Origin: Candidatus Limnocylindrales bacterium
Lineage (GTDB): Bacteria; Chloroflexota; Limnocylindria; Limnocylindrales; CSP1-4
NCBI GenBank assembly: GCA_036508755.1
Contig: DATCGV010000087.1
Span: 1,677-65,676, forward strand
Length of the DNA: 64,000 bases
Direction: 5' to 3'
Part shown: positions 31,382 to 55,199 of the stretch, piece by piece
How the letters are laid out: each line of letters begins with the position of its first letter
Numbering within the stretch: position 1 is the stretch's first letter
Position numbers and translations under genes: made by a program
The notes under the pieces: model-generated
The model's input: the letters and a program-made list of their open reading frames with translations, nothing else
The model's database searches: none
Told to the model about the DNA's origin: nothing

Positions 31382-31408
31382 CTCGATCCTCCTGAAGGTA
31401 CCCTCGCC

Positions 31409-32133: not shown

Positions 32134-32397
32134 CTCGGCGGTCCTGGAGAGCGGTTGGTAGATACCCCTGGGGGGTATGCGGAATCGCCCTTGCGGGTGC
32201 CGCTCGGCCGGTGCTACTGTTGGCCGCCCAAGGCCTCGCGGGGCACTGGGTAGGGAGGAGAAGGACCGAAGGCGCGACCGCTGGCCGGAACCCAGCACCG
32301 CGTTCTCGGGCCATTGTCGAGGGTAAGGTCCGCTCAGCGCCGTGCGCTGTGAGTGGCTGCCCGTTGGACGTTGTGACTAGTCGGGACGGCTGTATTG

Positions 32398-35353: not shown

Positions 35354-35386
35354 GCAGGGCCGCACATCGCGCGGCGTGCTGAAACG

Positions 35387-36511: not shown

Positions 36512-36843
36512 CAGCCAAGCGCCAGCCCACGCGTGTGGGCGACATGCTGCCGCGCATCGCCGCCGAGATCGGCATCGAGGACGAGCTGCGCCTGGCGCGG
36601 CGCATGATGGCCTGGCAGCGCCTCGTCGAGGAGCTGCTGCCCGCGGCCCGCGGCGCGTCAAAGCTGCTGGCCGTGCAGCCACCAGCGTTGATCGTCAGCG
36701 CCACGGACAGCCTCGTCGCCCAGGAGCTTCTCCTGCGTCAGGCTGAGCTTCTCGCCGCGTTCGGGGACATGGCCGACGGCGCCCATCTGCTCGAGCTGAG
36801 GGTCGTTATCCGGCCACCGGGCCGAGCCTTCTCCCCGCGCTAG
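36508..36843 (+). CDS. dciA: DUF721 / DciA-family protein (putative replicative helicase operator)
   Basis: 111 aa, with an ATGA overlap on the recF stop. This is the canonical post-recF position of DUF721. Sequence ...VGDMLPRIAAEIGIEDELRLARRMMAWQRLV... Confidence 0.7.
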   Translation: MTAKRQPTRVGDMLPRIAAEIGIEDELRLARRMMAWQRLVEELLPAARGASKLLAVQPPALIVSATDSLVAQELLLRQAELLAAFGDMADGAHLLELRVVIRPPGRAFSPR

Positions 36844-39180: not shown

Positions 39181-39729
39181 ATGTCCGGCGGGGACGCCCT
39201 GAGCGAGGGCAATGGCGCTGCAAACGGTGCGCTCAACGAGATGGTCGTCGAGAGCGTCCGCGTTCACATGATGTCGTCGCAGCACGTGGTCATCCTGCGC
39301 GACACCGGGCACGACCGTTACCTGCCCATCTGGATCGGCCCGTGGGAGGCGAACGCGATCGCGATGCGCCTCCAGGGCGTGGTTCCGGAACGGCCGATGA
39401 CCCACGACCTCTTCTCGCAGACGCTCGCCGAATGCGGTGTCACGCTCAAGCGGATCATCGTTTCGGACCTCGCCGACGACACCTTTCGGGCGCGCATGCA
39501 GCTCCAGATCGACGGCCGCGAGGTCGACCTCGATGCCCGCCCGAGCGACGCGATCGCCCTCGCCGTGCGCGCCGGCGTGCCCATCTTCGCGACGGACTCC
39601 GTCCTCGACCGGGCCGGAGTCATTCCGGAAGGTGCCGCGGACGAGAAGCTCAACGTCTTCCGCGAGTTCGTGAACTCACTCAACGTCGACTTGCCCGACG
39701 AGTCGGGCGAGGGGCACAAGCCCGACTAA
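39181..39729 (+). CDS. Bifunctional nuclease family protein (BFN / DUF151)
   Basis: ...VVILRDTGHDRYLPIWIGPWEANAIAMRLQG...RPMTHDL...ARPSDAIALAVRAGVPIF, a typical DUF151 core. Confidence 0.8.
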   Translation: MSGGDALSEGNGAANGALNEMVVESVRVHMMSSQHVVILRDTGHDRYLPIWIGPWEANAIAMRLQGVVPERPMTHDLFSQTLAECGVTLKRIIVSDLADDTFRARMQLQIDGREVDLDARPSDAIALAVRAGVPIFATDSVLDRAGVIPEGAADEKLNVFREFVNSLNVDLPDESGEGHKPD

Positions 39730-40502
39730 TCTGCCGTCGCTGAGGCACCCGACAGCACGGGCTCGCCACGCTCGAGCGCCCCGGCGCGGTTGGTCCACAA
39801 CCGGATGCGCAGGCGCCAGAAATCGCGCACCGCGCGGAAGATGACCGATGGCTTGGCACCGGTGGGGCTGCCCGCCGTGCGCGGGTAGTGCGGCACGCCG
39901 ACCTCGGCGATCTTGCGGCCGCGCTGCTTGAGCTTGATGAGCAGCTCGGCCGACATGAACGCGCCGCCCGATTCGAGGCGGATGCCCTCGAGCGCTGAGC
40001 GCCGGAAAAGCTTGAAGGCACAGTCGACGTCGCGCACTCCGAGCCTGAAGAAGAGGTTCAGCGCGAGACGGTAGGCACGCGCGTATGCCGTGCGGATGAA
40101 CGGATCGGCGCGCTTGAGGCGGTAGCCGACAACGACGTCGGGCTGGTCCGGTTGGGCCAGCCGTGCGAGCAGCCGGCCCAGATCGGCAACCTTGAACTGG
40201 CGGTCACCGTCGGTGAACGCGACCAGGTCATAGCGCGCGGCGCCCAGGCCGCTGCGCACGGCCGCGCCGTAGCCCTTGTTGGTTTCGTGATGAACAACTC
40301 GGATGCGCGGGTCAGAGGCCGCCAGTCTGTCCGCGATCCGGGGCGTCGCGTCGCGGCTGCCGTCGTCGACGGCGATGATCTCGAACTGCTCGGCCAGCGT
40401 CGGCAGGACCTCGAGTGCTTCGGCGATGAGCGCCTCGATGTTGTCTGCCTCGTTGTGGGCCGGGAAGAAGAACGACAGCTGGCTGACGCGCGGCCCTGTC
40501 AC
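39726..40502 (-). CDS. GT2-family polyprenol-phosphate sugar (mannose/glucose) synthase
   Basis: GTG at 40502 (GTGA overlap with the upstream gene). GT-A motifs FPAHNEADNI, IIAVDDGSRD and FTDGDRQF. The listed 460-aa ORF is an out-of-frame N-terminal extension. Confidence 0.85.
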   Translation of the reverse strand: MTGPRVSQLSFFFPAHNEADNIEALIAEALEVLPTLAEQFEIIAVDDGSRDATPRIADRLAASDPRIRVVHHETNKGYGAAVRSGLGAARYDLVAFTDGDRQFKVADLGRLLARLAQPDQPDVVVGYRLKRADPFIRTAYARAYRLALNLFFRLGVRDVDCAFKLFRRSALEGIRLESGGAFMSAELLIKLKQRGRKIAEVGVPHYPRTAGSPTGAKPSVIFRAVRDFWRLRIRLWTNRAGALERGEPVLSGASATAD

Positions 40503-42142
40503 CGGTCGGCCCTTACGGCGGTCGCCTGGAATCCGGTCACCTGGTAGACGGCCACGCCACCAACGATGCCGGGCAGGTTGACCATCGTGTAGCGCTGCAT
40601 GTAGCTGGGATAGTCGCCGGGAACGCGGATCAGGTACACCGGCCGATTGCCGAGGTTGCTGTCGATGACCTGCATCGCGCTGCCCAGGTTCTGATCGAGG
40701 ATCGTCCGGTCGTCGATGATCGTCACGTCGGGCCGCCAGCCCTCGACGTACTGGCCGTACCACATCGGCGTCGAGTAACTCCACCAGCTGATGATGACCG
40801 CGTTCTGGCCCATCACGGCGCCGAGCGAATCGAGCCACGTTCGCGCCGCGTGATCGCTCGACTCGTCGAGGCTTCGGAAGCGGACCGGCACGGCCACGAG
40901 CGCGGGCACGACGAGGACGATGCCGATCAGCGCGGCCACGGCCCAGCGCATGAGCGACGGCCGGGCGGGCGCGACGCGGGCCCGGAGCGTTTTCGCCGCC
41001 TCGACGATCGCGCCCACGCCCAGACCGCCGAGGACCGCGACGCACATCAGCGGCACAAGGTAGTAACGGCCGATGTCGGCATTCTCGTAGCCCAGCGCGA
41101 AGTACCACGTCAGCGCGAACCAGGTGAGGAGCATCAGCACCAGTGCTGCGCGGCGGAGCAGGCCGGCGACCGTACCCAACAGGGCGAGGACCGCCAGCAG
41201 CCCAAGCTGATCCCAGTTGTAGCGCGCGATCTGAGTGATGGCGTCAAAGAGCGGCGGCCGTGCCTTGAACGTGCCGGTGAACTGCTGGCCGAAGACGAGG
41301 TAGCTGAAGTTGGCCCACGTCTGCGGGTTGGCGTAGTCGAGCGGCGGGTTCATCGCCGACCGTATCGGCAGGTAGGCGTAGAGCACGACGGTGGTCACGA
41401 CCAATGCCGCGCCACACGTCGCCACGAGCCGGAAACGGCGCACGATGCCTGGGTACGTGATGAGCACATAGAGCGCGATCCCAGGTGCCAGCAGCAGCGT
41501 CAGCGCATGGTTCGCGAGCGCGACACCGAACAGTGCCGCCGCGGCGATCAGCAGCCGGTCGGCGTGCAGGCCCGCACGCTGGCGCTGCGCCCAGACGACG
41601 AGCAACAGGACCATGGCCGCGACGAGGAAGAGGTGGAACGCGTGCGGGTCGGCGTGCAGGCCGATCGCCCACGTCTGCGCGGCCACGGCAAAGACGATAC
41701 CGGTGGCTATTCCGATCACGAAGCGGCGTGTCAGGTAGGCCACCGTGATGCCGACGAGGCCGCACGCCGCCGCGGTGAGCAGCGCCGACAGCAGGTTGGC
41801 GCGGTACGCCTCGTCGCCGAATGGCTGGAGGACGACGGAGCCCAGCCACAACAGGAGGGTGTAGGCGGGGTACCCGGTTGGATGGGCGATTCCCAACACG
41901 GGTCCAACAGCCTGGAACTCGCCCGTGTCCCAGAAGCCCATGTCGGGCATCAGCGTGCGCATGTACAGGAGCAGCGCCGGGACGGCGACGAGCAGGAAGC
42001 AGGCCGCGAAGCGGACGCGCGTCGAGACACGCGCCGCGGGCAGCGCCGTCATGCGCGGCGCGGACACGGGCTGAAGCACAGCCAGCGCGCCTGGATCGGC
42101 GGCCTGCTCTTGGTCGGTGGCCTCAACGACGTCCGGGCTCAC
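40499..42142 (-). CDS. GT-C fold membrane glycosyltransferase, DUF2723 / TMEM260-like
   Basis: Loop-1 motif PDMGFWDTGEFQAVGPVLGIAHPTGYPAY and more than 10 predicted TM segments. The GTG at 42142 forms a GTGA overlap with the upstream gene; ATG at 42052 is an alternative. Confidence 0.7.
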   Translation of the reverse strand: MSPDVVEATDQEQAADPGALAVLQPVSAPRMTALPAARVSTRVRFAACFLLVAVPALLLYMRTLMPDMGFWDTGEFQAVGPVLGIAHPTGYPAYTLLLWLGSVVLQPFGDEAYRANLLSALLTAAACGLVGITVAYLTRRFVIGIATGIVFAVAAQTWAIGLHADPHAFHLFLVAAMVLLLVVWAQRQRAGLHADRLLIAAAALFGVALANHALTLLLAPGIALYVLITYPGIVRRFRLVATCGAALVVTTVVLYAYLPIRSAMNPPLDYANPQTWANFSYLVFGQQFTGTFKARPPLFDAITQIARYNWDQLGLLAVLALLGTVAGLLRRAALVLMLLTWFALTWYFALGYENADIGRYYLVPLMCVAVLGGLGVGAIVEAAKTLRARVAPARPSLMRWAVAALIGIVLVVPALVAVPVRFRSLDESSDHAARTWLDSLGAVMGQNAVIISWWSYSTPMWYGQYVEGWRPDVTIIDDRTILDQNLGSAMQVIDSNLGNRPVYLIRVPGDYPSYMQRYTMVNLPGIVGGVAVYQVTGFQATAVRADR

Positions 42143-43614
42143 CAGCCCAGTGTGACTCCCCAGTAGACGCCCCACGCATTTATGAGCACCGACAGCGCGA
42201 CCAGGCCGACGGTCAGCTTGCGCACCCCGAGCCACGCGATGGCGAGAGTCACGAGAACGAGCGCGAAGGGCGCAAAGTCGTTGCTGAAGCGATAGCCGAA
42301 CTGAACCCAGCCCTGGCTGAAGTGCATCAAGTTGACGAAGGCCACGGCGACTACGGCCAGCGCCGAGCCAAGGACGATGCCGCGCCGCCAGTAGCGGATG
42401 ACGAGTGGCACCGCGAGCAGATAGGCCGGGCTGGTCAGGAGGACGCTCATGCCGATCTGGTCTGGTTTGATCGCGGCGCAGGACAGGATGGAGGCCAGGT
42501 TGCAGTCGGCCGGGATCGATGGCGGCCAGGCGAGCATGATCAGCGCGTTGAGCGGTACGTGGCCGATGTCCTCGATGCCCAGGCTGCGGTTGATCTCGAA
42601 GCCGGGCGGCATATACCCGACGAACTCGGTCTGGTAGAGGTAGTCGTAGGCCGGATTGAACAGATGACCGCTCGACAGCTGGTTGTAGATGAGCAGGAGC
42701 GCGACTGGGATGAGCGCGCCGAGCGCAGCCGAGGCGCCGCGCCGCCAGACGGACCCGCCCGCGCCCACGAACAGGAAGAACGGCGCGGCGAAGATCACGG
42801 TCAGTCGGGCCATCGCCGCGACGCCGAACACGAACCCCGCGGCAAACTGGATGGGCTCGAAATGGGGGCGCACGCGGCGGTACCAGCCAAGGAACAAGCT
42901 GTTCTCGGCGAACGTGGCTGCGACCTCGTTCGCCGGGCGCTGGCCGCCCATGGGTCGGAGGGCGCGCAACGCGGCCAGCGCCTGTTCGCGGCGCTCACCG
43001 TCGAGCGCGAGGGTGATACCCAGGACGGTGAACGTGATCGCCACGACATGGGCCAGGAACCACGTCGACGAGAGCATCGCCGCATACCAGTGAACCGTGC
43101 CGAAGGCGAAGAAGACGGTGGCCAGTACGGCCACTGCGCGACGCTCGGTCAGGCGTGTAGTCATGCGCCAGACGAAGCCGACGTTGATCGCGCCGAGCGC
43201 CACGCCGACCAACTGGGCGTTGGTGGCCAGGCCGAAGACAGCCACGAACGGCATGAGCACGACGGCCGGCAGTGGCGGGAACGGCAGCAGCGCGTAGCTC
43301 GGGCCCGAGGGCGGGCCCGGCAGCGGCATGACGTCCTGGAAGTAGCTGTTGACGAACGGCCCATCGGTGACCGGATAGGCGATCGCGAAGCGGCCGTGCA
43401 GGAACGCGTCGGCCTGCCAGACGAAGTGGTTGTACAGGCCGTTGCGCGATTGGTCGGAGAAGTAATAGACGGCCAGCGCGAGGACGACGAAGAGCAGCCC
43501 GATGAGCGCCGGGTCGACACGCTCGAGCGCCAACTCGAAGCGCTCGCCGATCGTTGGCCGGGTCGTCGCCGGCGGCCGGGGCCGATCGAATGTCGTTGCT
43601 ATACTGCGCTGCAC
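42139..43614 (-). CDS. GT-C fold membrane glycosyltransferase (ArnT/PMT_2- or GT87/DUF2029-like; subfamily unresolved)
   Basis: 491-aa polytopic membrane ORF with an acidic/aromatic first loop (NHFVWQADAFLHGRFAIAYP...SYALLPFPPLP). First gene of the three-gene minus-strand unit. Confidence 0.6.
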   Translation of the reverse strand: MQRSIATTFDRPRPPATTRPTIGERFELALERVDPALIGLLFVVLALAVYYFSDQSRNGLYNHFVWQADAFLHGRFAIAYPVTDGPFVNSYFQDVMPLPGPPSGPSYALLPFPPLPAVVLMPFVAVFGLATNAQLVGVALGAINVGFVWRMTTRLTERRAVAVLATVFFAFGTVHWYAAMLSSTWFLAHVVAITFTVLGITLALDGERREQALAALRALRPMGGQRPANEVAATFAENSLFLGWYRRVRPHFEPIQFAAGFVFGVAAMARLTVIFAAPFFLFVGAGGSVWRRGASAALGALIPVALLLIYNQLSSGHLFNPAYDYLYQTEFVGYMPPGFEINRSLGIEDIGHVPLNALIMLAWPPSIPADCNLASILSCAAIKPDQIGMSVLLTSPAYLLAVPLVIRYWRRGIVLGSALAVVAVAFVNLMHFSQGWVQFGYRFSNDFAPFALVLVTLAIAWLGVRKLTVGLVALSVLINAWGVYWGVTLGW

Positions 43615-43643
43615 CTCGTCACCCTCTGGAGGTTGGGTCGGTT

Positions 43644-46600
43644 GTGACAGCGCCCCGCCCGGATGGGGCCGACCGGATCTCCGGAGTCTCGCAGAGTCCG
43701 CGTGGTGCGGGTGCGGCCGTCTCCGGCATTGCGATCCTGCTCCTCGTCGGTCTTCTCCTTCGACTCGTACTCGCGTACGTCCTGCTGCCCGGCTCCGGTT
43801 TTGCTTCGGACATCGGCACTTTCACCGCCTGGGCTTCCCAGCTGGGCCAGAGTGGACCAGGCGATTTCTATGCCACGGCGGGATTTGCAGACTATCCGCC
43901 CGGCTACCTGTATGTCCTGTGGTTGCTCGGCGGGCTGGGCCACATTCTGGCGCCCCTGGCAGGCGGCGATGCCGGCTCGGTGATCGCAGCGCTGATCAAG
44001 ATCCCGCCCATCCTGTGCGACGTTGCCATCGGCTACGTCCTGTACCGGATCGTCAAGTCCTGGCGCGGCGAGCATCCCGACGCGCAGCGCCTGGCGCTGA
44101 TCGCCGCCGCGATCTACCTGTTCAACCCGGTCACCTGGTACGACTCGGCGATCTGGGGCCAGACCGACTCGGTCGGCACGCTGGTCACCCTGCTCGCTGT
44201 CCTCGCCCTTATCCGCGGCAACTCCGAGGGTGCCTCGGTGCTCGCCGTGCTCGCCGTGCTGGTCAAGCCGCAGTTCGGGGTCGTCGCGCTGCCCGTCGTC
44301 GGTATCGTGCTCCTGCGCCGTCACCTCTTCGCGCCGGAGACCATTCCGCACAACCCGGTCCTCCTCCCTGCTCGTCTGCGCGGCTGGTTCGAAGAGGAGG
44401 GCGGCTTCTGGCGGCTTGTCTCGTCGGCCGTCGCGGCGCTGCTCGTGCTCGTCGTGCTTCTCGTCCCGTTCTCGCTCGACATACCGGGCTTCGTGCAGCT
44501 CATCGTCAAGACCGCCGGCGGATACCAGTACCTGTCGGTCAATGCCTACAACCCGTGGGCGCTGATCGGCGCGGGGGGGCAGGCGCCGCTCGCCTTTGGT
44601 GGCGGCTGGTCGCCCGACACCGTGCCGCTCATCGGTCCGTTGCCCGGCGTGTTGATCGGTGGCCTACTCCTCGTCGCCGGCTTTGGCCTGGGCGCGCTGC
44701 GCCTGGCGTGGCGCGACGACAGGCGCAGCATCATCGTCGTCACGCTCCTCCTCGCGCTGGGCTTCTTCATCCTGCCCACGCGCGTCCACGAGCGTTACAT
44801 GTTCCCGATCTTCGCCTTGCTGCCGATCCTCGCGGTCGTCGACCGGCGCTGGCTGGCGGCGACGATCGTCCTCTCGATCGGCGCGTTCATCAACATGCAC
44901 GGCATCCTGACCACGCCGCTGTACGCGACACCGAACGTCGCCAACCTGCCCTTGGGCGAGCTGTTCCGCGACCCGATCGGCATCCTGACCAGCATCGTCC
45001 TGAACGTGGCCGGCTTCGTGTTCGTCGCCTGGATGCTCCTGCCCAGTGCGGCGAGCGAGCCGGACTCGTACGACGAGCCGGCGCCGGCCGAGGAGGCCGG
45101 GCTTGGGCCGGACGAGGAATACGGCACCGAGGGCTACGTCGGGCCGCCCACAGCGCCCTGGTACGCGCCCCTGGCCGCTCTCGTGCCGCGCTACTCGATC
45201 CGCCGCGACCGAAGCGCCGAGCTGGTCAATGAGCTGGGCGGGACGCTCGGCAGGCGCGATGCCGTGCTCTTCGTGGTCATCTTCTTCGCTGCGCTGCTGT
45301 TGCGCACCTACAACCTCCAGCAGCCCTTCGACATGCACTTCGACGAGGTCTACCACGCGCGGACGGCGATGGAGTTCCTCCAGGACTGGCGCTACGGCAT
45401 ACCCCACTCGATCTACGAGTTCACCCACCCGCATATCGCCAAGTACGGCATGGCGATCGGCATCGAGCTGCTCGGCGACGACAAGGTCATCTCGACCGCG
45501 GATCTTGGTGCGGCCGTCGATTCAGCGGTCATCGAACAACGCTGGGCGCCGACAGATGCGCCCGACGAACACCTCGGCGACCGGCTGTACATCGCCACGG
45601 GCAGCGACGTCAACGCGTACGACCTCGAGGGCGCCGGTCCCAGGTTGGTAGCGACGATCCCGGGCGACTACGTTGCCGTTACGGTCGATGAGGACTCCCA
45701 CATCCTGTACATGGCCTCGGCCGATGGCACGGTCAGCCAGCTGCCCACCTCGGGCCTCGATGCATTGCGCCAGACAGGCTCGACGGACACGTCGGGCGAC
45801 CTGAGCGCGGCGCCGTTCGGCGCGCTGACCGGGCTCAATGGCAGCCTCGAGCGGCTCCAGGTCATCGGCGGCAACCTTGTCGGGCTGTCGAGCGGCGGCA
45901 CGTTGGTCAGCGTCGACCCTAGTACCGGTGCCGAGACAGGGCGAACGCAGATCACGGGCGTCGCCGACTACACCAGCGCACCGGCCAACTCGGAGGTCAT
46001 GGTTGATCCAAGCCAGGTCACCGACCGAGCCGGCGAGGCCCAGAAGCTGGCCGACCTGCTGCACGACGACCAGACGCGCATCGAAGGTGTCATTGCCGCG
46101 GCCAAGGGCCCGGTGCCTATCGCGGGCTACATCGGCGACAAGAAGGGCGACGTCCAGAACGCAATCGACGGCGGCGACCTGACCGGCGTGAGCATGACCG
46201 ACGGCACCGCGGTTGCCGTCGCGACGCCGAGTGGCGTGACCCTGCTCGATTCGACGACGCTTTCGACGCTCAGGCAGGTCGACATATCGATCCCCGCCAC
46301 TGGACTGGCGTTTGCCGCACGCGGCCCGGACGTCCCGACGCTGTACGTCGCGACCGGTCGTACCTTGACCACGATCCGGCTGGCGACCGACTCAGCCGTG
46401 GGGGTGAGCCTCACGCTGCCCATGCCCAACGTCGTCACGAAGGTCTACTGGGACGAGGCGACGACCAACGTCCACGCTCTGGGTACGACACAGGACGGCA
46501 GCTCGCCGACGGTTTATGTCATCGAGCCGCGCGGCAACTCCGTGTTCGCCGATGCGCCACTGCCGTTCCAGCCACAGGTCGCGCTCATGGACGCCAACCA

Positions 46601-48815
46601 GCTGTATCCCTCCGAGGACCGCAACGACCTCCTGGCGCTCAGTCCGAGCGGCCAGCTGGCGACGATAGACACGGGCAACAACCAGTTCGCCTACCGCTTC
46701 CCGGGAGTGCTGCTCGGGGCGTTGACCGCCGCGCTCATCTTCCTGCTCGCGCGCTTCCTGTTCCGGCGCCGGACGGTCGCGGTCATCGTCGCGATCCTCG
46801 TCCTGGCCGACGGCATGTTCTTCGCCAACTCGCGCATCGCGATGAACGACACGTATGTGACGTTCTTCATCGTCGCCGCGCTTACCGTCTTCGTGCCACT
46901 GTGGATTGGCCGCTGGCGCGGCCGCTGGGTTACTGCGGGCGGCCTGCTCACCGTCGGCATCCTGCTCGGCCTCGCCCTGGCTTCCAAGTGGGTCGGCGCT
47001 TACGCAATGGGCGCAGTGGGCCTGCTCATCCTGCTCCGCTCGTCCCTCGGGCGCTGGGTCGCCCTGGCGGCGATGATCCTGTTGACCGGTTTGCTCGGGT
47101 ATCTCGCCATCACGCCGAATCCGACGGTCGCCAACCCGCAGATCAACTACGTCTTCTTGGGCATCATGGTCGTGCTGACCGTGCTGCTCGCGATCGGCAT
47201 GACGATCCGTCGCGTGCGCACGTCGCGCGACGAGTTCCGCTTCGCGGTCGGCTTTCCGCTGCTGCTCGGCGTACTCGGCGTGCTCTACGGCCTGTTCCGC
47301 ATCATCACCGGCCCGCCGCCCGCGGCGGGCGCTCTTCTGCCGCCCGTGCGCGTGCTGGAGCTCGGCATTGCCGGCGTCATCGTCGGGCTCGCGGTCCTGG
47401 GCGTGGGCTGGTACCGCGGCCGGCGCGGCCACGGCCCGTTGGCTAGCGCCGCGACCGTCGATCCGACGGCAGACCCAGGCTCGCCGCCGCCTGACCGTGG
47501 CTGGCTGAGGCCGGGCTCGGGCCTGCTCGGCCTTCCTTGGCTGCTGGCCCTGCTCGCGATCACGGTCGTGCCGCTCGTCGTCTATGTCATCAGCTACATC
47601 CCGTGGATCAACCTGGGCAACCAGTGGTTCACGGGCTACCCGGCGGGCCACACCGGGCAGACGTTCCTGGACCTCCAGGTGTCGATGTACGACTACCACA
47701 ACTACCTGCGCGCAACGCACCCGGCGTCTTCGCCGTGGTGGGCCTGGCCGCTCGACCTGAAGCCGGTCTGGTTCCAGCAGGAGGACTACGCCGGCGGCAC
47801 GACGTCGGTCATCTACGACACGGGCAACATCGTCATCTTCTGGCTGTCGATTCCGGCCGTCGCCTGGGCGTGCTGGCAGGCGTGGAAGCGCCGCAGCCTG
47901 GCACTCACGTTCATCGCCATCACGATCTTCGCAATGTGGCTGCCGTGGGCGCGCATCGACCGCGCGACGTTCCAGTACCACGTCTTCACGATCCTGCCGT
48001 TCTCCTTCATGGCCCTCGCGTACATGCTCGGCGAGCTGTGGCACGGCCCCTCACCACGGACATGGGCGCTAGCCAAGGCATCGGCCGCTCTGGCGATCAT
48101 CGGGGCACCCTTGTTATGGCTCTTCCGGCTGCCCCTGTGCGGCCTGGCCAACACCCAACAGGTCAACAAGGGCACCGAAGTGTGTGGCAGCCTGTCGCGT
48201 GACTTCCAGCTGACGAGCTTCCAGCTGATCGGCATCGTGCTCGTCCTCGGCGCGCTGATCGCAGCTGGCGTCATCGCCTACAGGGGCCTGCGCAACAGCT
48301 CGACGATCAACGGTGGCATGAGACCGTTGCTCCTGCCAATCTCGTTCTCGGTCGCCCTGTTCGGCGCGGTGATCGTCATCGTCGGTGCCGGACTGCCCGG
48401 CGATTCGGTTTTCCATGCGTCGGTGACGGCCGAGATGCCGGCTTTCATCGCCCTGCTCCTGCTGTGCGTGCCGGCCTACTTCGTGCTCCAGGGCAGGGAC
48501 CCCAAACGCTACGTCGTCGGCGTCCTGGTCGCGGCAGTGGTCTGGTTCGTCGCCTTCTACCCGAACTTCGCCGCGCTACCGGTGCCCACGCCGCTGTCGC
48601 AGGTCCATCTCGGCCTGCTGCCCACCTGGAACTGGGGCTTCCAGTTCGGGGTCAACCTCGACGAGCCCAATCGGAATCCGCTCGATTTCACATCGATCAG
48701 CCTGCTCGTGATAGCCACGACCGCCCTGTGTATCGCGGCGATGTACGCCGTCCGTAACTGGAACAGCGCCAGGTCGGACCCCGCCGAGGTCAGCCCTCCG
48801 CCCGAACCGAGCTGA
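43644..48815 (+). CDS. Giant (~1720 aa) polytopic protein: N-terminal ALG6/ALG8- or DUF2029-like GT-C module fused to a PMT (GT39)-like GT-C module that carries a ~400-aa soluble insert
   Basis: Module 1 has SDIGTFTAWASQL...FADYPPGYLYVLW and ...TRVHERYMFP. Module 2 has ...MHFDEVYHARTAMEF...YEFTHPHIAKYGMAIG (DE and HPP-x-x-K-like PMT loop 1). The insert spans about 45480-46680. A GTG at 43644 preceded by GGAGG is preferred over the ATG at 43554, which would overlap the divergent gene. Confidence 0.75.
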   Translation: MTAPRPDGADRISGVSQSPRGAGAAVSGIAILLLVGLLLRLVLAYVLLPGSGFASDIGTFTAWASQLGQSGPGDFYATAGFADYPPGYLYVLWLLGGLGHILAPLAGGDAGSVIAALIKIPPILCDVAIGYVLYRIVKSWRGEHPDAQRLALIAAAIYLFNPVTWYDSAIWGQTDSVGTLVTLLAVLALIRGNSEGASVLAVLAVLVKPQFGVVALPVVGIVLLRRHLFAPETIPHNPVLLPARLRGWFEEEGGFWRLVSSAVAALLVLVVLLVPFSLDIPGFVQLIVKTAGGYQYLSVNAYNPWALIGAGGQAPLAFGGGWSPDTVPLIGPLPGVLIGGLLLVAGFGLGALRLAWRDDRRSIIVVTLLLALGFFILPTRVHERYMFPIFALLPILAVVDRRWLAATIVLSIGAFINMHGILTTPLYATPNVANLPLGELFRDPIGILTSIVLNVAGFVFVAWMLLPSAASEPDSYDEPAPAEEAGLGPDEEYGTEGYVGPPTAPWYAPLAALVPRYSIRRDRSAELVNELGGTLGRRDAVLFVVIFFAALLLRTYNLQQPFDMHFDEVYHARTAMEFLQDWRYGIPHSIYEFTHPHIAKYGMAIGIELLGDDKVISTADLGAAVDSAVIEQRWAPTDAPDEHLGDRLYIATGSDVNAYDLEGAGPRLVATIPGDYVAVTVDEDSHILYMASADGTVSQLPTSGLDALRQTGSTDTSGDLSAAPFGALTGLNGSLERLQVIGGNLVGLSSGGTLVSVDPSTGAETGRTQITGVADYTSAPANSEVMVDPSQVTDRAGEAQKLADLLHDDQTRIEGVIAAAKGPVPIAGYIGDKKGDVQNAIDGGDLTGVSMTDGTAVAVATPSGVTLLDSTTLSTLRQVDISIPATGLAFAARGPDVPTLYVATGRTLTTIRLATDSAVGVSLTLPMPNVVTKVYWDEATTNVHALGTTQDGSSPTVYVIEPRGNSVFADAPLPFQPQVALMDANQLYPSEDRNDLLALSPSGQLATIDTGNNQFAYRFPGVLLGALTAALIFLLARFLFRRRTVAVIVAILVLADGMFFANSRIAMNDTYVTFFIVAALTVFVPLWIGRWRGRWVTAGGLLTVGILLGLALASKWVGAYAMGAVGLLILLRSSLGRWVALAAMILLTGLLGYLAITPNPTVANPQINYVFLGIMVVLTVLLAIGMTIRRVRTSRDEFRFAVGFPLLLGVLGVLYGLFRIITGPPPAAGALLPPVRVLELGIAGVIVGLAVLGVGWYRGRRGHGPLASAATVDPTADPGSPPPDRGWLRPGSGLLGLPWLLALLAITVVPLVVYVISYIPWINLGNQWFTGYPAGHTGQTFLDLQVSMYDYHNYLRATHPASSPWWAWPLDLKPVWFQQEDYAGGTTSVIYDTGNIVIFWLSIPAVAWACWQAWKRRSLALTFIAITIFAMWLPWARIDRATFQYHVFTILPFSFMALAYMLGELWHGPSPRTWALAKASAALAIIGAPLLWLFRLPLCGLANTQQVNKGTEVCGSLSRDFQLTSFQLIGIVLVLGALIAAGVIAYRGLRNSSTINGGMRPLLLPISFSVALFGAVIVIVGAGLPGDSVFHASVTAEMPAFIALLLLCVPAYFVLQGRDPKRYVVGVLVAAVVWFVAFYPNFAALPVPTPLSQVHLGLLPTWNWGFQFGVNLDEPNRNPLDFTSISLLVIATTALCIAAMYAVRNWNSARSDPAEVSPPPEPS

Positions 48816-49992
48816 TCGGCTGCGGGTCGCGCGTCCCGAATACGAGCGCCGGGTCCGTGTGCTCGGGCAGGATGCCCTGCGCAGCAGCGCGCCGCGCGAC
48901 GAAGAGGTAGTACTCCTCGACCTTGGCGGCGATGTTGTCCCAGCCGAACTGGACGGCGCGCTGCCGCGCCGAAGCGCTCATCCGAGCGCTCATCTCCGGG
49001 TTGGACAGCAGCTGGCCGATCGCGTCGGCCAGAGCCGTGACGTTGCGCGGTGGGACCAGCAACCCCTGCTCGCCGCGCCGGACCACGCTCCGGTAGCCGT
49101 GAATGTCGCTGCACACGATGGGCGTCCCCGACGCTAGCGCCTCGAGCAGCACGACGCCCATCGATTCCTGGCCCGTCGCGGGTGAGACGTAGACGTCGGC
49201 GGTCGCGAAGTAGCGGATCTTGTCCTCGTCGCTGATGCGGCCCAGGAGCTCGACGCCGCCAAGGCGCCGGGTCGCGATGTAGCGCCTGATCTCGCGTTCC
49301 TGTGGCCCGGCGCCCGCGAGCAACAAGCGGCAATCGTAGCCGCGCTGACGCAGCTGGCGGTACGCCTTGAGCGCGTACATCACGCCTTTGCGCGGCTCGA
49401 AGCGGCCCAGGAAGAAGATGTTGGCCGTGCCGTCCTTGTAGCGCGTGATCGCCCGGGCGTTCTTGAAGCGATCGAGATCGACGCCGTTGGGGATGACCTT
49501 GTAGTCGCCCGGGAAATAGCGGTCGGCGAAGTGGCGCGCCGCCGCGCTGACGGCTATCCGGCCGTGAAGGCGGCGCGCGAATCGGCCCAGCATGCGCTTG
49601 CCGAACTCAGCCGCCGGGCTCCAGCCGGCATAGGCGTGGAACGTGGCGATGTTGATGCTCTTCGACTCGCGCAGGAGCACGAGCGACAGGAAGGGCACGA
49701 ACGGCTCGTGGAAGTGCAGGATGTCGAAGCGTTCCTCGTCGAGCATTTTGGCGACGATGCTCGTGTAGCGCGGCGAGAAGGTAAGCGTGCCGACGGATCC
49801 GTTGGCCGGCACGGAGAAGCCATAGCCCAAGCGGATGATGTCGCCCTCGCTCTGGCGCTGCGGGCCATGGACGCTGCTGATGATGCGGACGTCATGACCG
49901 CGCGTGACGAGGTGCTCGTACAGGTCGTGGACGTGTGCGTTGACGCCACCGGGCAGGGGATAGATGTACGGCGTCACGAGGCCGATCTTCAT
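48790..49992 (-). CDS. pimA: GT4 glycosyltransferase, PimA-like phosphatidylinositol alpha-mannosyltransferase
   Basis: MKIGLVTPYIYPLPGGVNAHVHDLYEHL... and ...ESMGVVLLEALASGTPIV... closely parallel mycobacterial PimA. ATGA overlap with the PHP gene. Confidence 0.8.
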   Translation of the reverse strand: MKIGLVTPYIYPLPGGVNAHVHDLYEHLVTRGHDVRIISSVHGPQRQSEGDIIRLGYGFSVPANGSVGTLTFSPRYTSIVAKMLDEERFDILHFHEPFVPFLSLVLLRESKSINIATFHAYAGWSPAAEFGKRMLGRFARRLHGRIAVSAAARHFADRYFPGDYKVIPNGVDLDRFKNARAITRYKDGTANIFFLGRFEPRKGVMYALKAYRQLRQRGYDCRLLLAGAGPQEREIRRYIATRRLGGVELLGRISDEDKIRYFATADVYVSPATGQESMGVVLLEALASGTPIVCSDIHGYRSVVRRGEQGLLVPPRNVTALADAIGQLLSNPEMSARMSASARQRAVQFGWDNIAAKVEEYYLFVARRAAAQGILPEHTDPALVFGTRDPQPISSVRAEG

Positions 49993-50798
49993 TCGCCCCT
50001 CCGCCGCGCGCCCAGGCCAGATTCATCGAGCCGTGCCGGCCGCAACCTGCCGCCCGGATAGCCCAAATCCCGACCTGTTCCGTCGCGCAGCAGCTTGCCG
50101 CGCACTTCGTCACGGACGGCGAGCGCGTTCTTGCCCATCTGGCGCCGAAACGTGGATACCTGCGTCTTCCATTCGTGTGTCGATCCTTCCCAGCCGGTGG
50201 TCCGCTCCACAATCGCGCGTCTGACGTCCTCGGCCGAGCTGCCCGGGAAGGTCGTCAGCGCGTGACCGACGTGCTCCGCACGATGGGCGTCGCTCGCGCC
50301 AAGCGCCGCGACGCCCATCTCAGCGATGAACTCGGGCGCCCGTCTGGACCAGCGCATGCTGGCCGTGGTCGGGTTGAACGCTTCGATCCCGTCCGGGTGG
50401 AAGATCGGGTCGGGATCCGCCATCAGCTTGCGTATCGACCCGGCGCTCGCGCACAGCGGATATGGCACGAGCGGATGGGCGATGATCGCGAGGCCGCCTT
50501 GCTCGTGGATCTGCCTGACCGTCGAGCGGAGCGATCCCCACGGCCGAATGCGCTCGTTGATGTACAGCGCCACGACGTGGCCGCCGCGCGTGGTGACCTC
50601 TTCACCGACGACGACCTGGACATGCAGGCCGCGCGCCTCGGCCATCGCCTTGGCGGCGTGCGCCGCGTCCACACGCTCGTGGTCGGCAATCGCGATGACG
50701 TCGAGGTGGGCGCGGTTCTCGGCGTGGTCGAGGATCTCAGCCACGCTCGACACGCCGTCAGAGGCCAGGCTGTGGATGTGCAGATCGGCGCGGCCCAT
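49989..50798 (-). CDS. PHP-domain metal-dependent phosphoesterase (TrpH/YciV-like)
   Basis: ATG at 50798. N-terminal motif ADLHIHSLASDGVSS, then IAIADHE and IAHP. Overlaps the upstream stop by 1 nt and the downstream pimA start by 4 nt. Confidence 0.8.
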   Translation of the reverse strand: MGRADLHIHSLASDGVSSVAEILDHAENRAHLDVIAIADHERVDAAHAAKAMAEARGLHVQVVVGEEVTTRGGHVVALYINERIRPWGSLRSTVRQIHEQGGLAIIAHPLVPYPLCASAGSIRKLMADPDPIFHPDGIEAFNPTTASMRWSRRAPEFIAEMGVAALGASDAHRAEHVGHALTTFPGSSAEDVRRAIVERTTGWEGSTHEWKTQVSTFRRQMGKNALAVRDEVRGKLLRDGTGRDLGYPGGRLRPARLDESGLGARRRGE

Positions 50799-51844
50799 CA
50801 GTGGCTCGCTCCGCGGGCATCTGCCGCCAGGTCGTCCCAGATCGGAAAGAACATCGTCCACCACTGTTCAGGCGCGTCGGCGATGGCGCGCTCGAACGCT
50901 CGCGCCTGCGCGTCCATGAAGCCGGCCAGGCGCTCGCGGGTCGTCCCCGTCGCCGGCATCTCCAGGCGTTCGAGGCGCGTCGGGTAGCGGGCGCCGGCGC
51001 GCCGCGTGGCGACGAGCCATGTCGGCGCGCCCGTCTCGAGGGCGAGGACTGCCGGCCCCGCCGGCAGGCGCGCCGGCGCGCCAAAGAGATCGACACGAAC
51101 GCCTTTGCCGCCGATCTGTCGGTCAGCGACGAGGGCGACGGTCTCGCCCCGGTCGAGCGTGTCGCGCACGACGGTCGCGGCACCGGCGAGCGGGATGACG
51201 CGCAGTCCGGTCTGGCCGCGCGAGCGCTCGAAATAGGCCTGCAGGTCCGGATCAGCGATCGTCTCCATGGGTGCGGTGATGGGCACTCCCCGTGCGGTGG
51301 CCCACAGAGCGGGGATCTCGACCGCGCCGAAATGCAGACCGACGACGATCGTCGGGCCGCGCCGGCCGGCAGGAAACGCCTCGTCGGCCAGCGCAGGCAC
51401 GTCGGGCTGGACGCGCGCGAGCTCAGCCGGCAGCGCGAAGCGGCGCACGGTTGCGTTCTCGAGGTAGCTGCGCACCCAGTGTCCGAACGCATCACGCACG
51501 AGCCGGTCGAGCTCGCGGGCATCGCGCGCGGCGGCAGCTGTCCGTGGCCCGCCCATGTCGTGAGCGGCGAGATAGGTGCAGACGCGTTCGAGGTTGGCGC
51601 GCACCAGCCGCCGCCGCGCCGGCCGGGTTCGGTACAGCACGCCGCCCCACGCCCACGCGAGGCCCACGAGAGGGCGCTCGGGAAGCCGCGTCAGGAGACC
51701 GGAAAGCACGGACAGGCCGCGCACGACGAGCCTGCCGCGTAGCGACTGGCGACGCTTGGGTGCCGGCGGCCGGGTGGCGCGCGCCCCTGCGTCGTGTGAT
51801 TCGACGCCGGGTGACTGTGGCTTGGCCGCCACGACCGTCGTCAT
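50798..51844 (-). CDS. HtrB/LpxL-family lipid acyltransferase (PatA-like PIM acyltransferase candidate)
   Basis: ATG at 51844 (ATGA overlap). Motif VGLHFGAVE (HxxxxE) and C-terminal ...PEQWWTMFFPIW, typical of the Lip_A_acyltrans family. Confidence 0.75.
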   Translation of the reverse strand: MTTVVAAKPQSPGVESHDAGARATRPPAPKRRQSLRGRLVVRGLSVLSGLLTRLPERPLVGLAWAWGGVLYRTRPARRRLVRANLERVCTYLAAHDMGGPRTAAAARDARELDRLVRDAFGHWVRSYLENATVRRFALPAELARVQPDVPALADEAFPAGRRGPTIVVGLHFGAVEIPALWATARGVPITAPMETIADPDLQAYFERSRGQTGLRVIPLAGAATVVRDTLDRGETVALVADRQIGGKGVRVDLFGAPARLPAGPAVLALETGAPTWLVATRRAGARYPTRLERLEMPATGTTRERLAGFMDAQARAFERAIADAPEQWWTMFFPIWDDLAADARGASH

Positions 51845-52989
51845 GCGCCGGCCCCAGAGATGCTCAGCGCCCGCTCGGCGAGCGCCTGCTTCTCCTGCGC
51901 GGTCTGGGGCCAGATGGGCTTGAACGAGTACCACTGCTCTGGCGCGGTCGAGATCATGTCCTCGAGCGCGACCGCGATGAGTTGAGTTGCGCGTTGCATC
52001 TCAGCGTCGCTCGTATCGGCGACGTCGATCGGGTCGTAATGGCGGGCGAGGTACGTGCCGTCGTCGAGGCGGCGACAGACGACCGGCACGATCGCCGCCT
52101 TGGTCTTGGCCGCGAGCATCGCCGGCCCAGCCGGCAGCGTGGTCCACTCGCCGAAGAGTCGAACGGGAATGCCGTCGGGTCGGTAGCCCCAGTCAACGAC
52201 GAGGCCCAGGATGGCCGGTTCACGCAGTGCGCTGAAGACGCGGCGCAGGTTGCGCCAGGGAATGATCTCGATCTTCCAGCGTCGGCGCTGGGCGTTCATC
52301 TCCTCCAACAGCTCGGGGTACGCGGAATCATCGGCCAGCCCGTAGGTCGGCAGCCCGCGCAGCGCAAAAGCACCAGCCAGCAGGTCGATCGACCCGACGT
52401 GGCCCGAGACTGCGATCAGGCCGCGCTTCTGGGCGCGTAGTCGCTCGAACAGATCGATGAACGACTGCCCGCCGTGATCGCCGTCGAGTTGGGCGAGGAG
52501 CCGCGTTGGTTCATCGGCGGGCAGGTATGGCAGGCGCATCAGCTCGATCACGAACTGGGCATAGGTGGCGTAGATGCGCTGAGCCAGGCTGCGCACGCGC
52601 CGGTCGGCCGGCGGCAGGCCGAGCACGTGCGACGCGTTCGAGAGGATGATCCGGCGCTTGACCGGCCACGCGAAGTAGCTGCCGACGAACAGCGCCCGAC
52701 CGACGGGCAGACTGACCCGCGTCGGGACATGCGCGATCGCGGCCGAGGCAGCACGGTAGCCACGTACGGCGGAGCGCTCGCGCGCCCGCCGTACGGCTCT
52801 GCCGACCCGACTGCCGGCCTGTTCTCTACGGTGCGGCGCGTAGTTGATGCCGCTGTCTGTCTCGCTCAGCTGGTTGGGACCTCGCTTCAGAGGTGTAACG
52901 CTAGGCGACGGTTGCCTTGGCCGCCTGTGCGGCCTTTTTGCTCGCTGATGGCGAAGCGTGGCTGCCGAGTCGTCGTCGCTTGAGAGCAA
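51841..52989 (-). CDS. HtrB/LpxL-family lipid acyltransferase, second paralogue (start uncertain)
   Basis: Motif VSGHVGSID and C-terminal ...[11 protein letters not shown]. The only in-frame ATG/GTG/TTG start is at 52989, which overlaps the ino1 3' end by 89 nt. Confidence 0.7.
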
Positions 52990-54175
52990 GCGCCTTCTCG
53001 GTGCCGACGAGTGTCTCGTTGTCCTCGCCGCGGATGAACGCCTCGACGCGGTTGAACGCGATGTCGTCGTGGATCTGGATCGGCGGGCTCTTCATGAAGT
53101 AGCTCGAAGGAGCGACGAGTGTGCCCTTGAGGCCGCGATCGAGACCGAGCTTCAGGCAGCGCACGGAATCAGTGATCACGCCGGCGCTGTTGGGCGAGTC
53201 CCAGACCTCGAGCTTGAGCTCGGCGTTGAGTGGCACGTCGCCGTAGGTCGTGCCCTCCATCCGGATGTAGCACCACTTGCGGTCGAGCAGCCACGGCACG
53301 TGGTCGCTTGGGCCGACGTGGATGTTGTCCGGGTCGATCTCGTAGTCGAGCATGCTCGTGACGGCATTGGTCTTGCTGATCTTCTTCGACTCCAGGCGTT
53401 CGCGCTCGAGCATATTCAGGAAGTCGGTATTGCCACCGAAGTTGAGCTGGTAGGTGCGATCGAGACGGACGCCGCGGTCCATGAACAGGCGCGTCAGCAC
53501 GCGGTGCGTGATCGTCGCGCCGACCTGGCTCTTGATGTCATCGCCGATGATCGGCAGGCCTTCCTCGGCGAAGCGGCGCTGCCAGTAGGGCTCACGACCG
53601 ATGAACACCGGGATGGCGTTGACGAAGCCGACGCCGGCCTTGAGCGCCTGCTCGACGTACCACTTGGTCGCCTCTTCCGAGCCGACGGGCAGGTACGAGA
53701 CCATCACGTCGACCTGGCGCTCCTTGAGGATGCCGACGACGTCGACCGTGGGACCGGGCGCCTTCTCGATGATCTGGGAGAGGTACTTGCCCAGGCCGTC
53801 GTGGGTCATGCCGCGCTGCACTTCCACGCCCAGGTGCGGTACCTGCTGGAACACGTACGTGTTGTTCGGCTTGGTGTAGATCGCCTCGGACAGGTCCTTG
53901 CCGACCTTGTTCTTGTCGATGTCAAAGGCAGCCACGAAGTGGATATCGCGGATGTGGTAGCCGCCCAGGTTGACATGCATCAGACCCGGCACGAACTCGT
54001 CGTCGGCCGCATTCTCGTAGTAGTAGCGGCCCTGGACGAGGCTGCTGGCGCAGTTGCCGACGCCCACGATCGCGACGCGGATCTTGCCGTCGTTGCGCTT
54101 CGGGCCGCGCCCGTTGCCGTTCCCGTGGACCTTTGCGTCCGCGTGAGCCTTGCCGTTGCCACTGCCCTTGGCCAT
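52901..54175 (-). CDS. ino1: myo-Inositol-1-phosphate synthase
   Basis: ATG at 54175. [22 protein letters not shown]..., essentially the bacterial MIPS signature, with Lys/Gly-rich N- and Lys/Ala-rich C-terminal tails. The listed 602-aa ORF is an out-of-frame extension over pgsA. Confidence 0.9.
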
Positions 54176-54177
54176 GG

Positions 54178-54861
54178 TTACTTGTGAGCCTCCTGCCTTG
54201 TTGACTGTGACTGGCGATAGACGAAATAGATGCGTTGGATGGTCGTGATGGTTGCGAGGAGCACGATCAGGCCGAGGCTGCCGAACATGGCGATGTCTCC
54301 GGCTGTATTCGGCCAAAACATCTCGCCTGGGCCTCCGGCCAGCCCGGTAAGCACAAGTCCGACCACGAGGATGCCGAGTCGAACCTCGCGCGGCGCCAGC
54401 CCTACGTTCGCCATACCCGTTCCGGAGCTGAAGCCGAGGCTTTCTGACTTGGCGCGCGTGTAGCTGACCATGAACGATGCGGCGAGGGCTGCGATCGGAA
54501 ACATCTCGTGAAAGCCGATCGGGCCGCCTTCGACCGTCCAGCCGAGACCCCACGCGATCCCGATGTAGACGATCCCCTCGCCGGCGCGGTCCATCGTGCT
54601 GTCGAGGAAGGCGCCGAACTTGCTGGTCTTGCCCGTCGCCCTGGCCAGCGCCCCGTCGAAGAGATCGAAGACTGCCCCGAACGCGACAAGTAACCCGGCA
54701 ACGAGCCACGCGTGCTGGGCTGCTGCCACCGCGGCAACCACGGCGATGGCGAAGCCGATGAGCGTCAGCGCGTTGGGCGACAGGCCGGTGCGCACGAACA
54801 CGCGTGCCACGGGTGCCTCGATGGTTGCCCGGAAGCGCTGGCGGAACGACGCCGAGATCAC
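54178..54861 (-). CDS. pgsA: CDP-alcohol phosphatidyltransferase, PgsA1-like phosphatidylinositol-phosphate synthase
   Basis: Signature [30 protein letters not shown] (DG-x2-AR-x8-G-x3-D-x3-D). GTG at 54861, 6 nt after the ArsR stop. Adjacent to ino1. Confidence 0.78.
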
Positions 54862-54866
54862 GGCCG

Positions 54867-55199
54867 TCAGCTCGCGAGGCCGAGCATCTCGCGCTCGCGG
54901 GCGCGGAAATGGGTCAGGACATCCCTGCTCAGCGTGCAGATCACCTCGCGGCCGGCGCGGCGCGTCTCTACTACTCCGGCCGCCTTGAGCCGGTGCAGGT
55001 GCCACGAGACGAGTGGCTGGGACAGGTCGACGTGCGCGGTCAGCTCAGTGACCGTCGCCGGACTTTCTGCCAGGCGCTGCATCAGGCGCAGGCGGGTCGG
55101 GTCGGAAAGTGCCTTGTGATATGCCGCGACCAAGCGCAGCTCCTCGGGCGGAGCGGTCAGCGCGGCGAGAGTTGATCGAATGTGGGCGGGAGAGGGCAA
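54867..55199 (-). CDS. ArsR/SmtB-family transcriptional regulator
   Basis: wHTH region ...[51 protein letters not shown].... A TTG at 55199 preceded by AAGGA gives 110 aa. The longer ORF to 55280 would cover the operator-like palindrome. Confidence 0.8.

Follow-up and report, generated by a model that had tools for sequence, protein, structure and literature searches.

A single-chain fusion of ALG6-like and PMT-type GT-C modules with a beta-propeller insert in Limnocylindria, a candidate protein glycosylation enzyme

We analysed a stretch of 64,000 nucleotides (nt) from a Candidatus Limnocylindrales bacterium (assembly GCA_036508755.1, contig DATCGV010000087.1, positions 1,677 to 65,676; hereafter the window, in whose own numbering all positions are given). 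A single gene of the window (43644..48815, plus strand) encodes a protein of 1,723 amino acids (aa) that joins an ALG6-like GT-C glycosyltransferase module to a second GT-C module of the protein O-mannosyltransferase (PMT, GT39) type, the latter with a beta-propeller inserted in its first extracytoplasmic loop. By analogy, we consider it somewhat better than an even bet that this protein is a single-chain counterpart of the mycobacterial Pmt-Rv0051-Rv3212 complex, that is, a two-module GT-C enzyme that depends on lipid-linked sugars and probably acts on serine and threonine (Ser/Thr) residues of exported proteins. A sequence-only reading of the window had proposed two different GT-C modules in one chain; fold searches showed both, and assigned them to different families.

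The plus-strand open frame spans 43554-48815 in the list of open reading frames (ORFs) and their translations. The likely start is the GTG at 43644, with GGAGG just upstream, and the gene ends in a TGA stop. Homologues P0001 (91% identity), P0003, and P0023 have the same length and N-terminus as the window protein. GC content at third codon positions (GC3) was 0.88, even along the whole length of the ORF and typical for genes of this window of 68% GC. The single ORF of about 1720 aa described beforehand was therefore borne out by its measured length, its GC3, and its full-length homologues, and every motif quoted for it was found in the translation, including SDIGTF (aa 55), FADYPPGY (aa 81), TRVHERY (aa 379), HFDEVYHAR (aa 565), THPHIAKYG (aa 594), and FAYRFPGVL (aa 1015). 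A plus-strand ORF at 41821-43647, whose stop overlaps the GTG start, was suspected to be a coupled gene and was rejected as a shadow ORF; the true genes there lie on the minus strand, with a GC3 of 0.87-0.89 and conserved homologues.

The fusion is real and conserved and not an assembly artefact, because the N-terminal (N) module is in frame with the C-terminal (C) module in 60 of the 68 related loci with a complete frame. Among 5.8 billion proteins searched, there were more than 120 clusters of full-length homologues (1,640-1,850 aa, 45-91% identity), mostly from Chloroflexota or Candidatus Limnocylindria and carrying only generic names such as 'phospholipid carrier-dependent glycosyltransferase' and 'Gpi18-like mannosyltransferase'. 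The locus scan, run on a single genome for each GTDB species, yielded at least 488 matching stretches; the best 80 of these all came from Chloroflexota metagenome-assembled genomes (MAGs) except for one bin labelled Methylomirabilota. We give virtually no credence to the alternative that the long ORF represents two or three adjacent genes merged by an assembly or frameshift error. It could draw on the eight complete loci in which the N and C parts lie in different frames and on one locus (L079) with a stop/GTG overlap that fits two genes. Against it stand the one-frame arrangement in 60 independent assemblies, the full length of the protein clusters, the uniform GC3, and the several in-gene frame changes in three of the eight exceptions (L005, L054, and L066), as indel errors give. 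In three further exceptions (L015, L058, and L063), the frame change was confined to the linker and is ambiguous. Six of the eight exceptions were MFD-labelled MAGs. A check for orthologues split into two genes, which had been suggested from the sequence, came out in favour of the fusion, although a few relatives seem split.

The N module (aa 1-466; 43644..45041, plus strand) is an ALG6-like GT-C membrane domain with 12 or 14 transmembrane (TM) helices. Its AlphaFold2 (AF2) model had a mean predicted local distance difference test score (pLDDT) of 85.3 and a predicted TM-score (pTM) of 0.85. In Foldseek, the nearest solved structure was yeast ALG6 (6snh_X; E 6.3e-7, query TM-score (TMq) 0.62, target TM-score (TMt) 0.68), followed by ArnT, PIG-U, PimE (TMt 0.58), and ALG3. 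The Pfam model Alg6_Alg8 matched aa 83-428 with 25.4 bits (cutoff 25) in the whole protein and with 34.2 bits in the isolated module, for which the PIG-U model reached an equal 34.3 bits; across the family, Alg6_Alg8 matched only 11 of 31 members. The profile of 31 relatives, some fused and some stand-alone, matched ALG6 at E 1e-5, and PIG-M was matched as well. The Pfam GT87 model (PF09594) had no match in the N module of the window and matched five of the 31 relatives, with a best E-value of 2e-7; relative P0191 scored 21.4 bits, below the cutoff. The family is large, with 4,328 representative matches, many of stand-alone size (450-520 aa), and is without a Pfam model of its own.

Residue D56 (codon 43809..43811, plus strand), the putative catalytic base in extracytoplasmic loop 1, did not vary among 66 fused homologues or within a diverse set of 31 fused or stand-alone ones reaching down to ~31% identity. 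It aligned opposite the Asp of the yeast ALG6 YGD, which we take to be the ALG6 catalytic base D69, assuming that the PDB chain has an 18-residue tag. The counterpart of the ALG6 HEK motif is H382-E383-R384 (codons 44787..44795, plus strand) in TRVHERY, which was invariant in the same two sets and aligned with ALG6 'QVHEK'. The helix list and the positive-inside rule indicated an even number of TM helices, with D56, K208/Q210, and HER382-384 outside and the C-terminal linker inside. With ALG6 as the best fold match and with the Asp and the HE(K/R) motif aligned, the ALG6/ALG8-like character claimed beforehand for the N-terminal module stands. Judged from these residues, the N module keeps its catalytic signatures and looks catalytically competent.

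The N module resembles ALG6/ALG8 (GT57; 6snh) in its fold and in the aligned catalytic Asp and HEK/HER; its Alg6_Alg8 score in Pfam reaches or exceeds the gathering cutoff, but PIG-U scores equally. It differs in that identity is only ~15%, the window protein is bacterial with no lipid-linked oligosaccharide pathway, and the family resembles PIG-U, PIG-M, GT87, and ALG3 too. With PimE and other GT87 enzymes (PDB 9dm5), which act in the pathway of phosphatidylinositol mannosides (PIMs), lipomannan (LM), and lipoarabinomannan (LAM), it shares the GT-C fold (at the TMt given above), an early loop-1 Asp, and the nearness of PimA, PatA, and phosphatidylinositol-phosphate (PIP) synthase genes. PimE, in contrast, is a stand-alone protein of ~430 aa with no PMT or propeller, and the window N module is without a GT87 Pfam match.

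The two modules are joined by a cytoplasmic linker (aa 467-536; 45042..45251, plus strand) that ends in a conserved RRDRS. The acidic linker noted beforehand between the modules was confirmed by its charge (4 K/R vs. 13 D/E), and it is predicted to be disordered, with pLDDT below 50 at aa 484-502 and 514-521 in the AF2 model and disorder over aa 484-530; R520, D522, and R523 are conserved.

The C module begins with TM1 and the first part of extracytoplasmic loop 1 (aa 537-614; 45252..45485, plus strand), which holds the DE-motif helix and the HPHxAK helix. This segment is colinear with residues 55-115 of yeast Pmt1, and its FDEVYHAR is invariant; D567-E568 (codons 45342..45347, plus strand), the PMT 'DE' motif, lies opposite Pmt1 FDEV. 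The PMT-type TM core, from TM2 to the C-terminus (aa 1010-1723; 46671..48812, plus strand), was assigned from Pfam, from alignment to Pmt1 and Pmt4, and from Foldseek. Pfam PMT (PF02366) matched aa 1012-1132 with 62.4 bits (cutoff 22.7), over profile positions 80-199 only because the insert interrupts the domain. PMT_4TMC (PF16192; aa 1339-1492, 47658-48119, plus strand) scored 40.2 bits (cutoff 32.4), and PMT_2 scored 42 bits, above its cutoff. When aa 615-1009 were deleted in silico, the remainder was colinear with yeast Pmt1 (6p25_A) at E 1.7e-10, and the deletion junction landed in the short Pmt1 loop ahead of TM2. Residues R554, D567/E568, and R1018 lie opposite Pmt1 R64, D77/E78, and R138, which are essential in Pmt1, and are invariant in the 66 fused homologues. 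The AF2 model of the C module (pLDDT 86.3, pTM 0.86) was matched by Pmt4 (9i5k) at E 1.7e-7 in Foldseek, and the Pmt4 sequence was also alignable. The sequence-only reading was hence right about a second module with a PMT-type loop 1 and about catalytic signatures in both modules (D56 and HER in the N module, D567/E568 and Arg in the C module, all aligned and invariant). It erred over a helix that it called TM3-like (FAYRFPGVLLGAL), which aligns with Pmt1 TM2 in the R138 region and not with TM3. A MIR domain had no match in the whole-protein Pfam scan, and the loop ahead of PMT_4TMC is short; to our knowledge, MIR is absent from bacterial Pmt as well. On its low score for the bacterial Pmt equivalog (see below), we class the C module as a distant PMT-type module and not as an orthologue of actinobacterial Pmt.

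The insert in loop 1 is a beta-propeller of ~7 blades (aa 615-1009; 45486..46670, plus strand) lying between the HPHxAK helix and TM2. This agrees almost exactly with the soluble insert placed beforehand at about nt 45480-46680. The AF2 model showed ~28 beta strands, mostly with pLDDT >90, and the top Foldseek matches of the C-module model were the seven-bladed WD40 propellers Gbeta, WDR61, and ATG16L1 (TMt 0.65-0.74), with BamB also matched. A profile search of the PDB with the insert returned many solved propellers. Pfam gave no match for the window insert alone, and propeller families matched the orthologous inserts (Beta-prop_EML_2 in 21 of 36 and PQQ_2/BamB in 11 of 36). The assignment is therefore based on the AF2 model together with Foldseek, the profile searches, and the inserts of orthologues, and these lines of evidence substantiate the propeller-like insert proposed from the sequence; the blade count, for which seven or eight are possible, follows from the predicted strands and the matching folds. 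Each of the five quoted 'blade' motifs (aa 648, 687, 899, 956, and 996) sits on strand pairs of the predicted propeller. Within the propeller, a mainly helical sub-insert (aa ~777-864; 45972..46235, plus strand) resembles the N-terminal pedestal region of class B penicillin-binding proteins (PBPs). Its helices were placed at aa 795-842, between blades, in the AF2 model, and its profile matched 4ovd_A residues 75-163 (E 5.5e-7), SpoVD 7rcz (7e-5), and PBP3 4ye5. This similarity hints at a link with the peptidoglycan synthesis machinery.

In the predicted topology, TM1 of the N module leads to the outside, into loop 1 with the invariant D56, and the even number of TM helices brings the chain back to the cytoplasm, where the acidic, disordered linker lies. 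The C module crosses to the outside again with its own TM1 and opens the PMT-type loop 1 with D567/E568, enlarged by the propeller ahead of TM2. Given this order of TM helices in both modules, both catalytic centres and the propeller are predicted to lie on the outer face. In the reading that we favour, the neighbouring GT2 glycosyltransferase described below would make a polyprenyl-phosphate-hexose donor, from which the C module would move the hexose, most likely mannose, onto Ser/Thr of exported proteins. The propeller would cap the active site and select or present the acceptor, in the way suggested for Rv3212 and, in eukaryotic PMTs, for the MIR domains. The N module would take the role of the second GT-C subunit, as do yeast Pmt2 and mycobacterial Rv0051. 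With the ALG6-type Asp and HE(K/R) motif still in place, this module is probably also an enzyme in its own right that uses a polyprenyl-phosphate sugar, perhaps to extend the O-glycan or to glycosylate a second acceptor. The presence of all three kinds of part in one chain is in itself evidence of their working together.

The closest precedent is the mycobacterial Pmt complex. According to a July 2026 bioRxiv preprint (10.64898/2026.07.15.738315), Rv0051, Rv3212, and Rv1209 co-purify with the GT39 enzyme Pmt/Rv1002c and share a phenotypic link with it. Rv0051 is described there as a GT87-like GT-C protein said to be without catalytic residues, Rv3212 as a periplasmic propeller with eight blades that, in a model, covers the active site of Pmt and plays a MIR-like part, and Rv1209 as DivIVA-like; the same text reports that some Paenibacillus GT39 enzymes are translationally fused to GT87. 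Compared by the kind of part so described, both systems have a PMT with a DE motif, a second GT-C membrane protein, and an extracytoplasmic propeller. They differ in that here all lies in one polypeptide, with the propeller inside PMT loop 1 and with ~7 blades instead of eight, and in that the second GT-C is ALG6-like with catalytic residues, unlike Rv0051 as reported. For a counterpart of Rv1209, no DivIVA Pfam match was found among the window neighbours scanned.

Two other systems offer partial parallels. In the eukaryotic PMT1-PMT2 and Pmt4 dimers (GT39; 6p25, 9i5k, and 9e61), to which the C module aligns from TM1 to about TM5 and in the PMT_4TMC region, two GT-C units likewise sit side by side, and a beta-rich lumenal domain caps the active site. 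The window protein has no MIR beta-trefoil in loop 5 but a propeller in loop 1, a partner that belongs to another GT-C family and is covalently fused, and extra C-terminal TM helices (aa ~1525-1710); its lipid carrier would be a bacterial polyprenol and not dolichol. In streptococci, the GT2 and GT-C pairs GtrB/PgtC2 and PgfS/PgfM1 glycosylate Ser/Thr-rich regions of exported proteins (bioRxiv 10.1101/2024.05.05.592596). The resemblance there is a polyprenyl-phosphate-sugar GT2 encoded beside GT-C enzymes acting outside the membrane, whereas the streptococcal GT-C proteins are of the YfhO type, with a single module and no propeller, and the sugars are Glc or GalNAc.

The genes around the fusion were counted in a tblastn survey of 82 related loci, in which absences occurred mostly where contigs were short. 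Divergent from the fusion gene lies an operon on the minus strand that includes a 491-aa polytopic membrane protein (42139..43614; GC3 0.89; 65 of 82 loci), a DUF2723/TMEM260-like GT-C protein (40499..42235; PF11028, 85 bits; 60 of 82 loci), and the GT2 glycosyltransferase (39729..40550; Glycos_transf_2, 106 bits; 62 of 82 loci). The 491-aa protein had no Pfam or PDB match and, in NCBIfam, only a weak match to the LA_3751/3752 putative glycosyltransferase. The best full-length-like NCBIfam matches of the GT2 were PpgS, dolichyl-phosphate-hexose transferase, AglJ, and ArnC, all below cutoff, which makes it a candidate polyprenyl-phosphate-sugar synthase for donor supply. The presence of the GT2 in the divergent operon supports such a supply, as does a GT2 beside a propeller-less fusion elsewhere (P0263, see below). 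Counting the fusion, the locus holds the GT2 and three or four GT-C-type modules.

On the other side, a convergent minus-strand operon of phosphatidylinositol (PI) and PIM genes (48790..55005) is present, gene by gene, in 56-69 of the 82 loci. It encodes PimA (48790-49992; matched by M. smegmatis PimA, 2gej, at E 1e-60), a PHP phosphoesterase (49989-50864), two PatA-like acyltransferases (50798-51934 and 51841-52989; NCBIfam PIM acyltransferase, 115 and 102 bits, cutoffs 209), Ino1 (52992-54250; NCBIfam inositol-3-phosphate synthase, 536 bits, cutoff 638), and PIP synthase (54178-55005; NCBIfam, 132 bits, cutoff 170). The four NCBIfam scores of the PatA-like proteins, Ino1, and PIP synthase are below cutoff, yet each represents the best or near-best family for its protein; the PIP synthase gene also scored 133 bits for archaetidylinositol-phosphate synthase. 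The PHP gene occupies the spot where a PIP phosphatase is expected and is a candidate for that missing step. The set of neighbours persists where the fusion protein is only ~40% identical, and adjacency to the PimA operon is lost in L002, L009, L018, L019, and L050.

Further upstream, a 767-aa protein (36855-39158, plus strand; 61 of 82 loci) has an N-terminus with weak similarity to PP2C, and a TM segment; judged by eye from the translation only, the part that follows is extracellular and rich in beta structure and ends in a C-terminal tail rich in Pro/Thr/Ser. Such a protein could plausibly be a substrate of O-glycosylation. The window is origin-proximal, containing yidC, jag, dnaA, dnaN, and recF; the stretch 26313-36843 encodes a VanW/PG_binding_4 protein, jag/KhpB, yidC, dnaA, dnaN, recF, and a 124-aa ORF (36469-36843) that stands where loci L001 and L002 carry DciA. 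The conserved synteny around the fusion may be due in part to this stable origin-proximal region.

Relatives with other arrangements were also inspected. In locus L079:525-6118 (a k141 contig of an SMAG-labelled MAG), the stop of the N-module ORF, at 2243, overlaps a GTG at 2240 in the C-module frame (GTGA), making this a probable natural two-gene version of the fusion. P0086 (1,343 aa) and P0023 (1,371 aa) were rejected as natural short variants, the gene call of the former beginning inside the N module and the latter having a C-terminal frameshift. P0129 (491 aa) was rejected as a split orthologue; the next gene downstream is a second N-module paralogue and not a PMT part. The two form a tandem in L083:385-3074 with a 4-nt overlap, and the second copy is 55% identical to the window module; the N module therefore also duplicates as a stand-alone gene. 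Representative matches of 600-1,400 aa, considered as intermediate architectures, were mostly contig-end fragments, with P0263 as the only clear propeller-less fusion of N module and PMT among them. P0263 (932 aa; L085:1398-5110) has a PMT_2 match that starts at profile position 2. Its gene lies between those for an NAD-dependent epimerase and a GT2, on a contig that also carries archaeal-type UPF0179, RACo, and NikR. Because P0263 is a related fusion without a propeller, it suggests that the fusion of GT-C to PMT came first and that the propeller was inserted later. In L084:6135-9398, a stand-alone N-module homologue (P0141, 465 aa) is divergent from a 510-aa protein whose N-terminus (…NPDEASIGYEAW…) resembles an ArnT/PMT_2-type GT-C by eye, and the two may be another pairing of GT-C proteins. 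P0259 (836 aa), with N-module homology in its C-terminal half (aa 441-826) and a weak ALG3 match in its N-terminal half, may be a different double-GT-C fusion.

Several points weigh against the favoured reading. Similarity to characterised PMTs is low, with 44 bits against a cutoff of 800 for the NCBIfam protein O-mannosyltransferase equivalog NF058602, and we only infer the acceptor and the sugar. The N module is nearer to ALG6 and PIG-U than to GT87, so that the link to Rv0051 is by analogy; the window copy is without the GT87 match that 5 of 31 relatives have. The propeller has ~7 blades and is inserted, whereas Rv3212 has eight and is a separate protein, and its placement over the DE site is a proposal made by analogy. 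Finally, a glycolipid acceptor would, for the N module, go at least as well with the adjacent PimA/PatA/Ino1/PIP-synthase operon. This last point leads to the main rival, lipoglycan assembly, which we regard as possible, if rather unlikely. Here, one or both GT-C modules would extend the PIMs of the adjacent operon on the outside of the membrane, like PimE and MptA/B/C of mycobacteria, with polyprenyl-phosphate-mannose as the donor and the propeller binding the growing glycan or the lipid carrier. A close PimA homologue lies in the convergent operon together with two PIM-acyltransferase-like proteins, inositol-3-phosphate synthase, and PIP synthase, and the adjacency holds even at ~40% identity of the fusion protein. 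The fold of the N module also matches PimE and PIG-M, some family members have a GT87 match, and the GT2 with four GT-C-type modules at the locus recalls LM/LAM pathways. However, the PimA operon is convergent and hence not co-transcribed with the fusion, the adjacency is missing in the five loci listed above, and in this origin-proximal region gene order is conserved far beyond these genes. Moreover, the C module carries the DE motif and PMT_4TMC, signatures known only from protein O-mannosyltransferases, and a PMT with a second GT-C and a propeller is the composition of the mycobacterial protein-mannosylation complex.

A different alternative assigns all catalysis to the PMT module, with the N module as a non-enzymatic GT-C partner that stabilises the enzyme or recruits substrates, like PIG-U, yeast Pmt2 in an acceptor-recruiting role, or Rv0051 as the preprint has it. 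We find this doubtful. In its favour, both Pfam and the fold search also link the N module to PIG-U, which is non-catalytic, and Rv0051 is reported in the preprint to be without catalytic residues yet required for Pmt function (10.64898/2026.07.15.738315). It is opposed by the invariance of D56 and H382-E383-R384 in fused and stand-alone relatives down to ~31% identity, by the alignment of these residues with the ALG6 catalytic Asp and HEK, and by the abundance of stand-alone homologues. The favoured single-chain counterpart of the Pmt-Rv0051-Rv3212 complex also has a more speculative extension, unlikely on present indications, in which the protein would be a machine with two active sites, each drawing on a common pool of polyprenyl-phosphate sugar for a different transfer. 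The PMT module might start the O-mannosylation of exported proteins and the ALG6-like module extend the glycan; alternatively, the ALG6-like module would mannosylate PI-anchored glycolipids that the adjacent PimA operon makes. Either way, the propeller with its PBP-pedestal-like sub-domain would hold the enzyme close to the machinery of cell-wall synthesis or its substrates. If this were true, the fusion would be an ancestral, fully catalytic form of the Pmt-partner-propeller assembly, which mycobacteria would now hold as a hetero-oligomer with a dead partner.

The view in the sequence-only reading that this architecture is not described was correct in part. The preprint describes both GT-C-to-PMT fusions and an assembly of PMT, partner, and propeller, and the family is common in Chloroflexota MAGs. 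The processive or two-step machine that the sequence-only reading also proposed is hypothetical. Literature searches on tandem GT-C fusions, Limnocylindria glycosyltransferases, and PIMs in Chloroflexi found nothing specific. For three features, no description was found in the literature searched: the propeller within PMT loop 1, an ALG6-like partner that looks catalytic, and conservation throughout the class Limnocylindria next to a PimA operon. The natural fusion offers an independent argument that PMT-type enzymes generally act as a GT-C pair capped by an extracytoplasmic beta-rich domain. It supports the complex of Pmt, Rv0051, and Rv3212 proposed for mycobacteria and carries the principle to a distant monoderm phylum. 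As one polypeptide, the fusion would lend itself well to cryo-EM and biochemical study of a complete bacterial PMT assembly, and its partner module, still with catalytic residues, can show whether the partner began as an enzyme. For the biology of Limnocylindria, the neighbourhood points to an unexplored, actinobacteria-like envelope of PI-mannosides and mannoproteins, because the GT2, two membrane proteins (at least one of them GT-C-like), and a full PimA/PatA/Ino1/PIP-synthase operon are conserved there.

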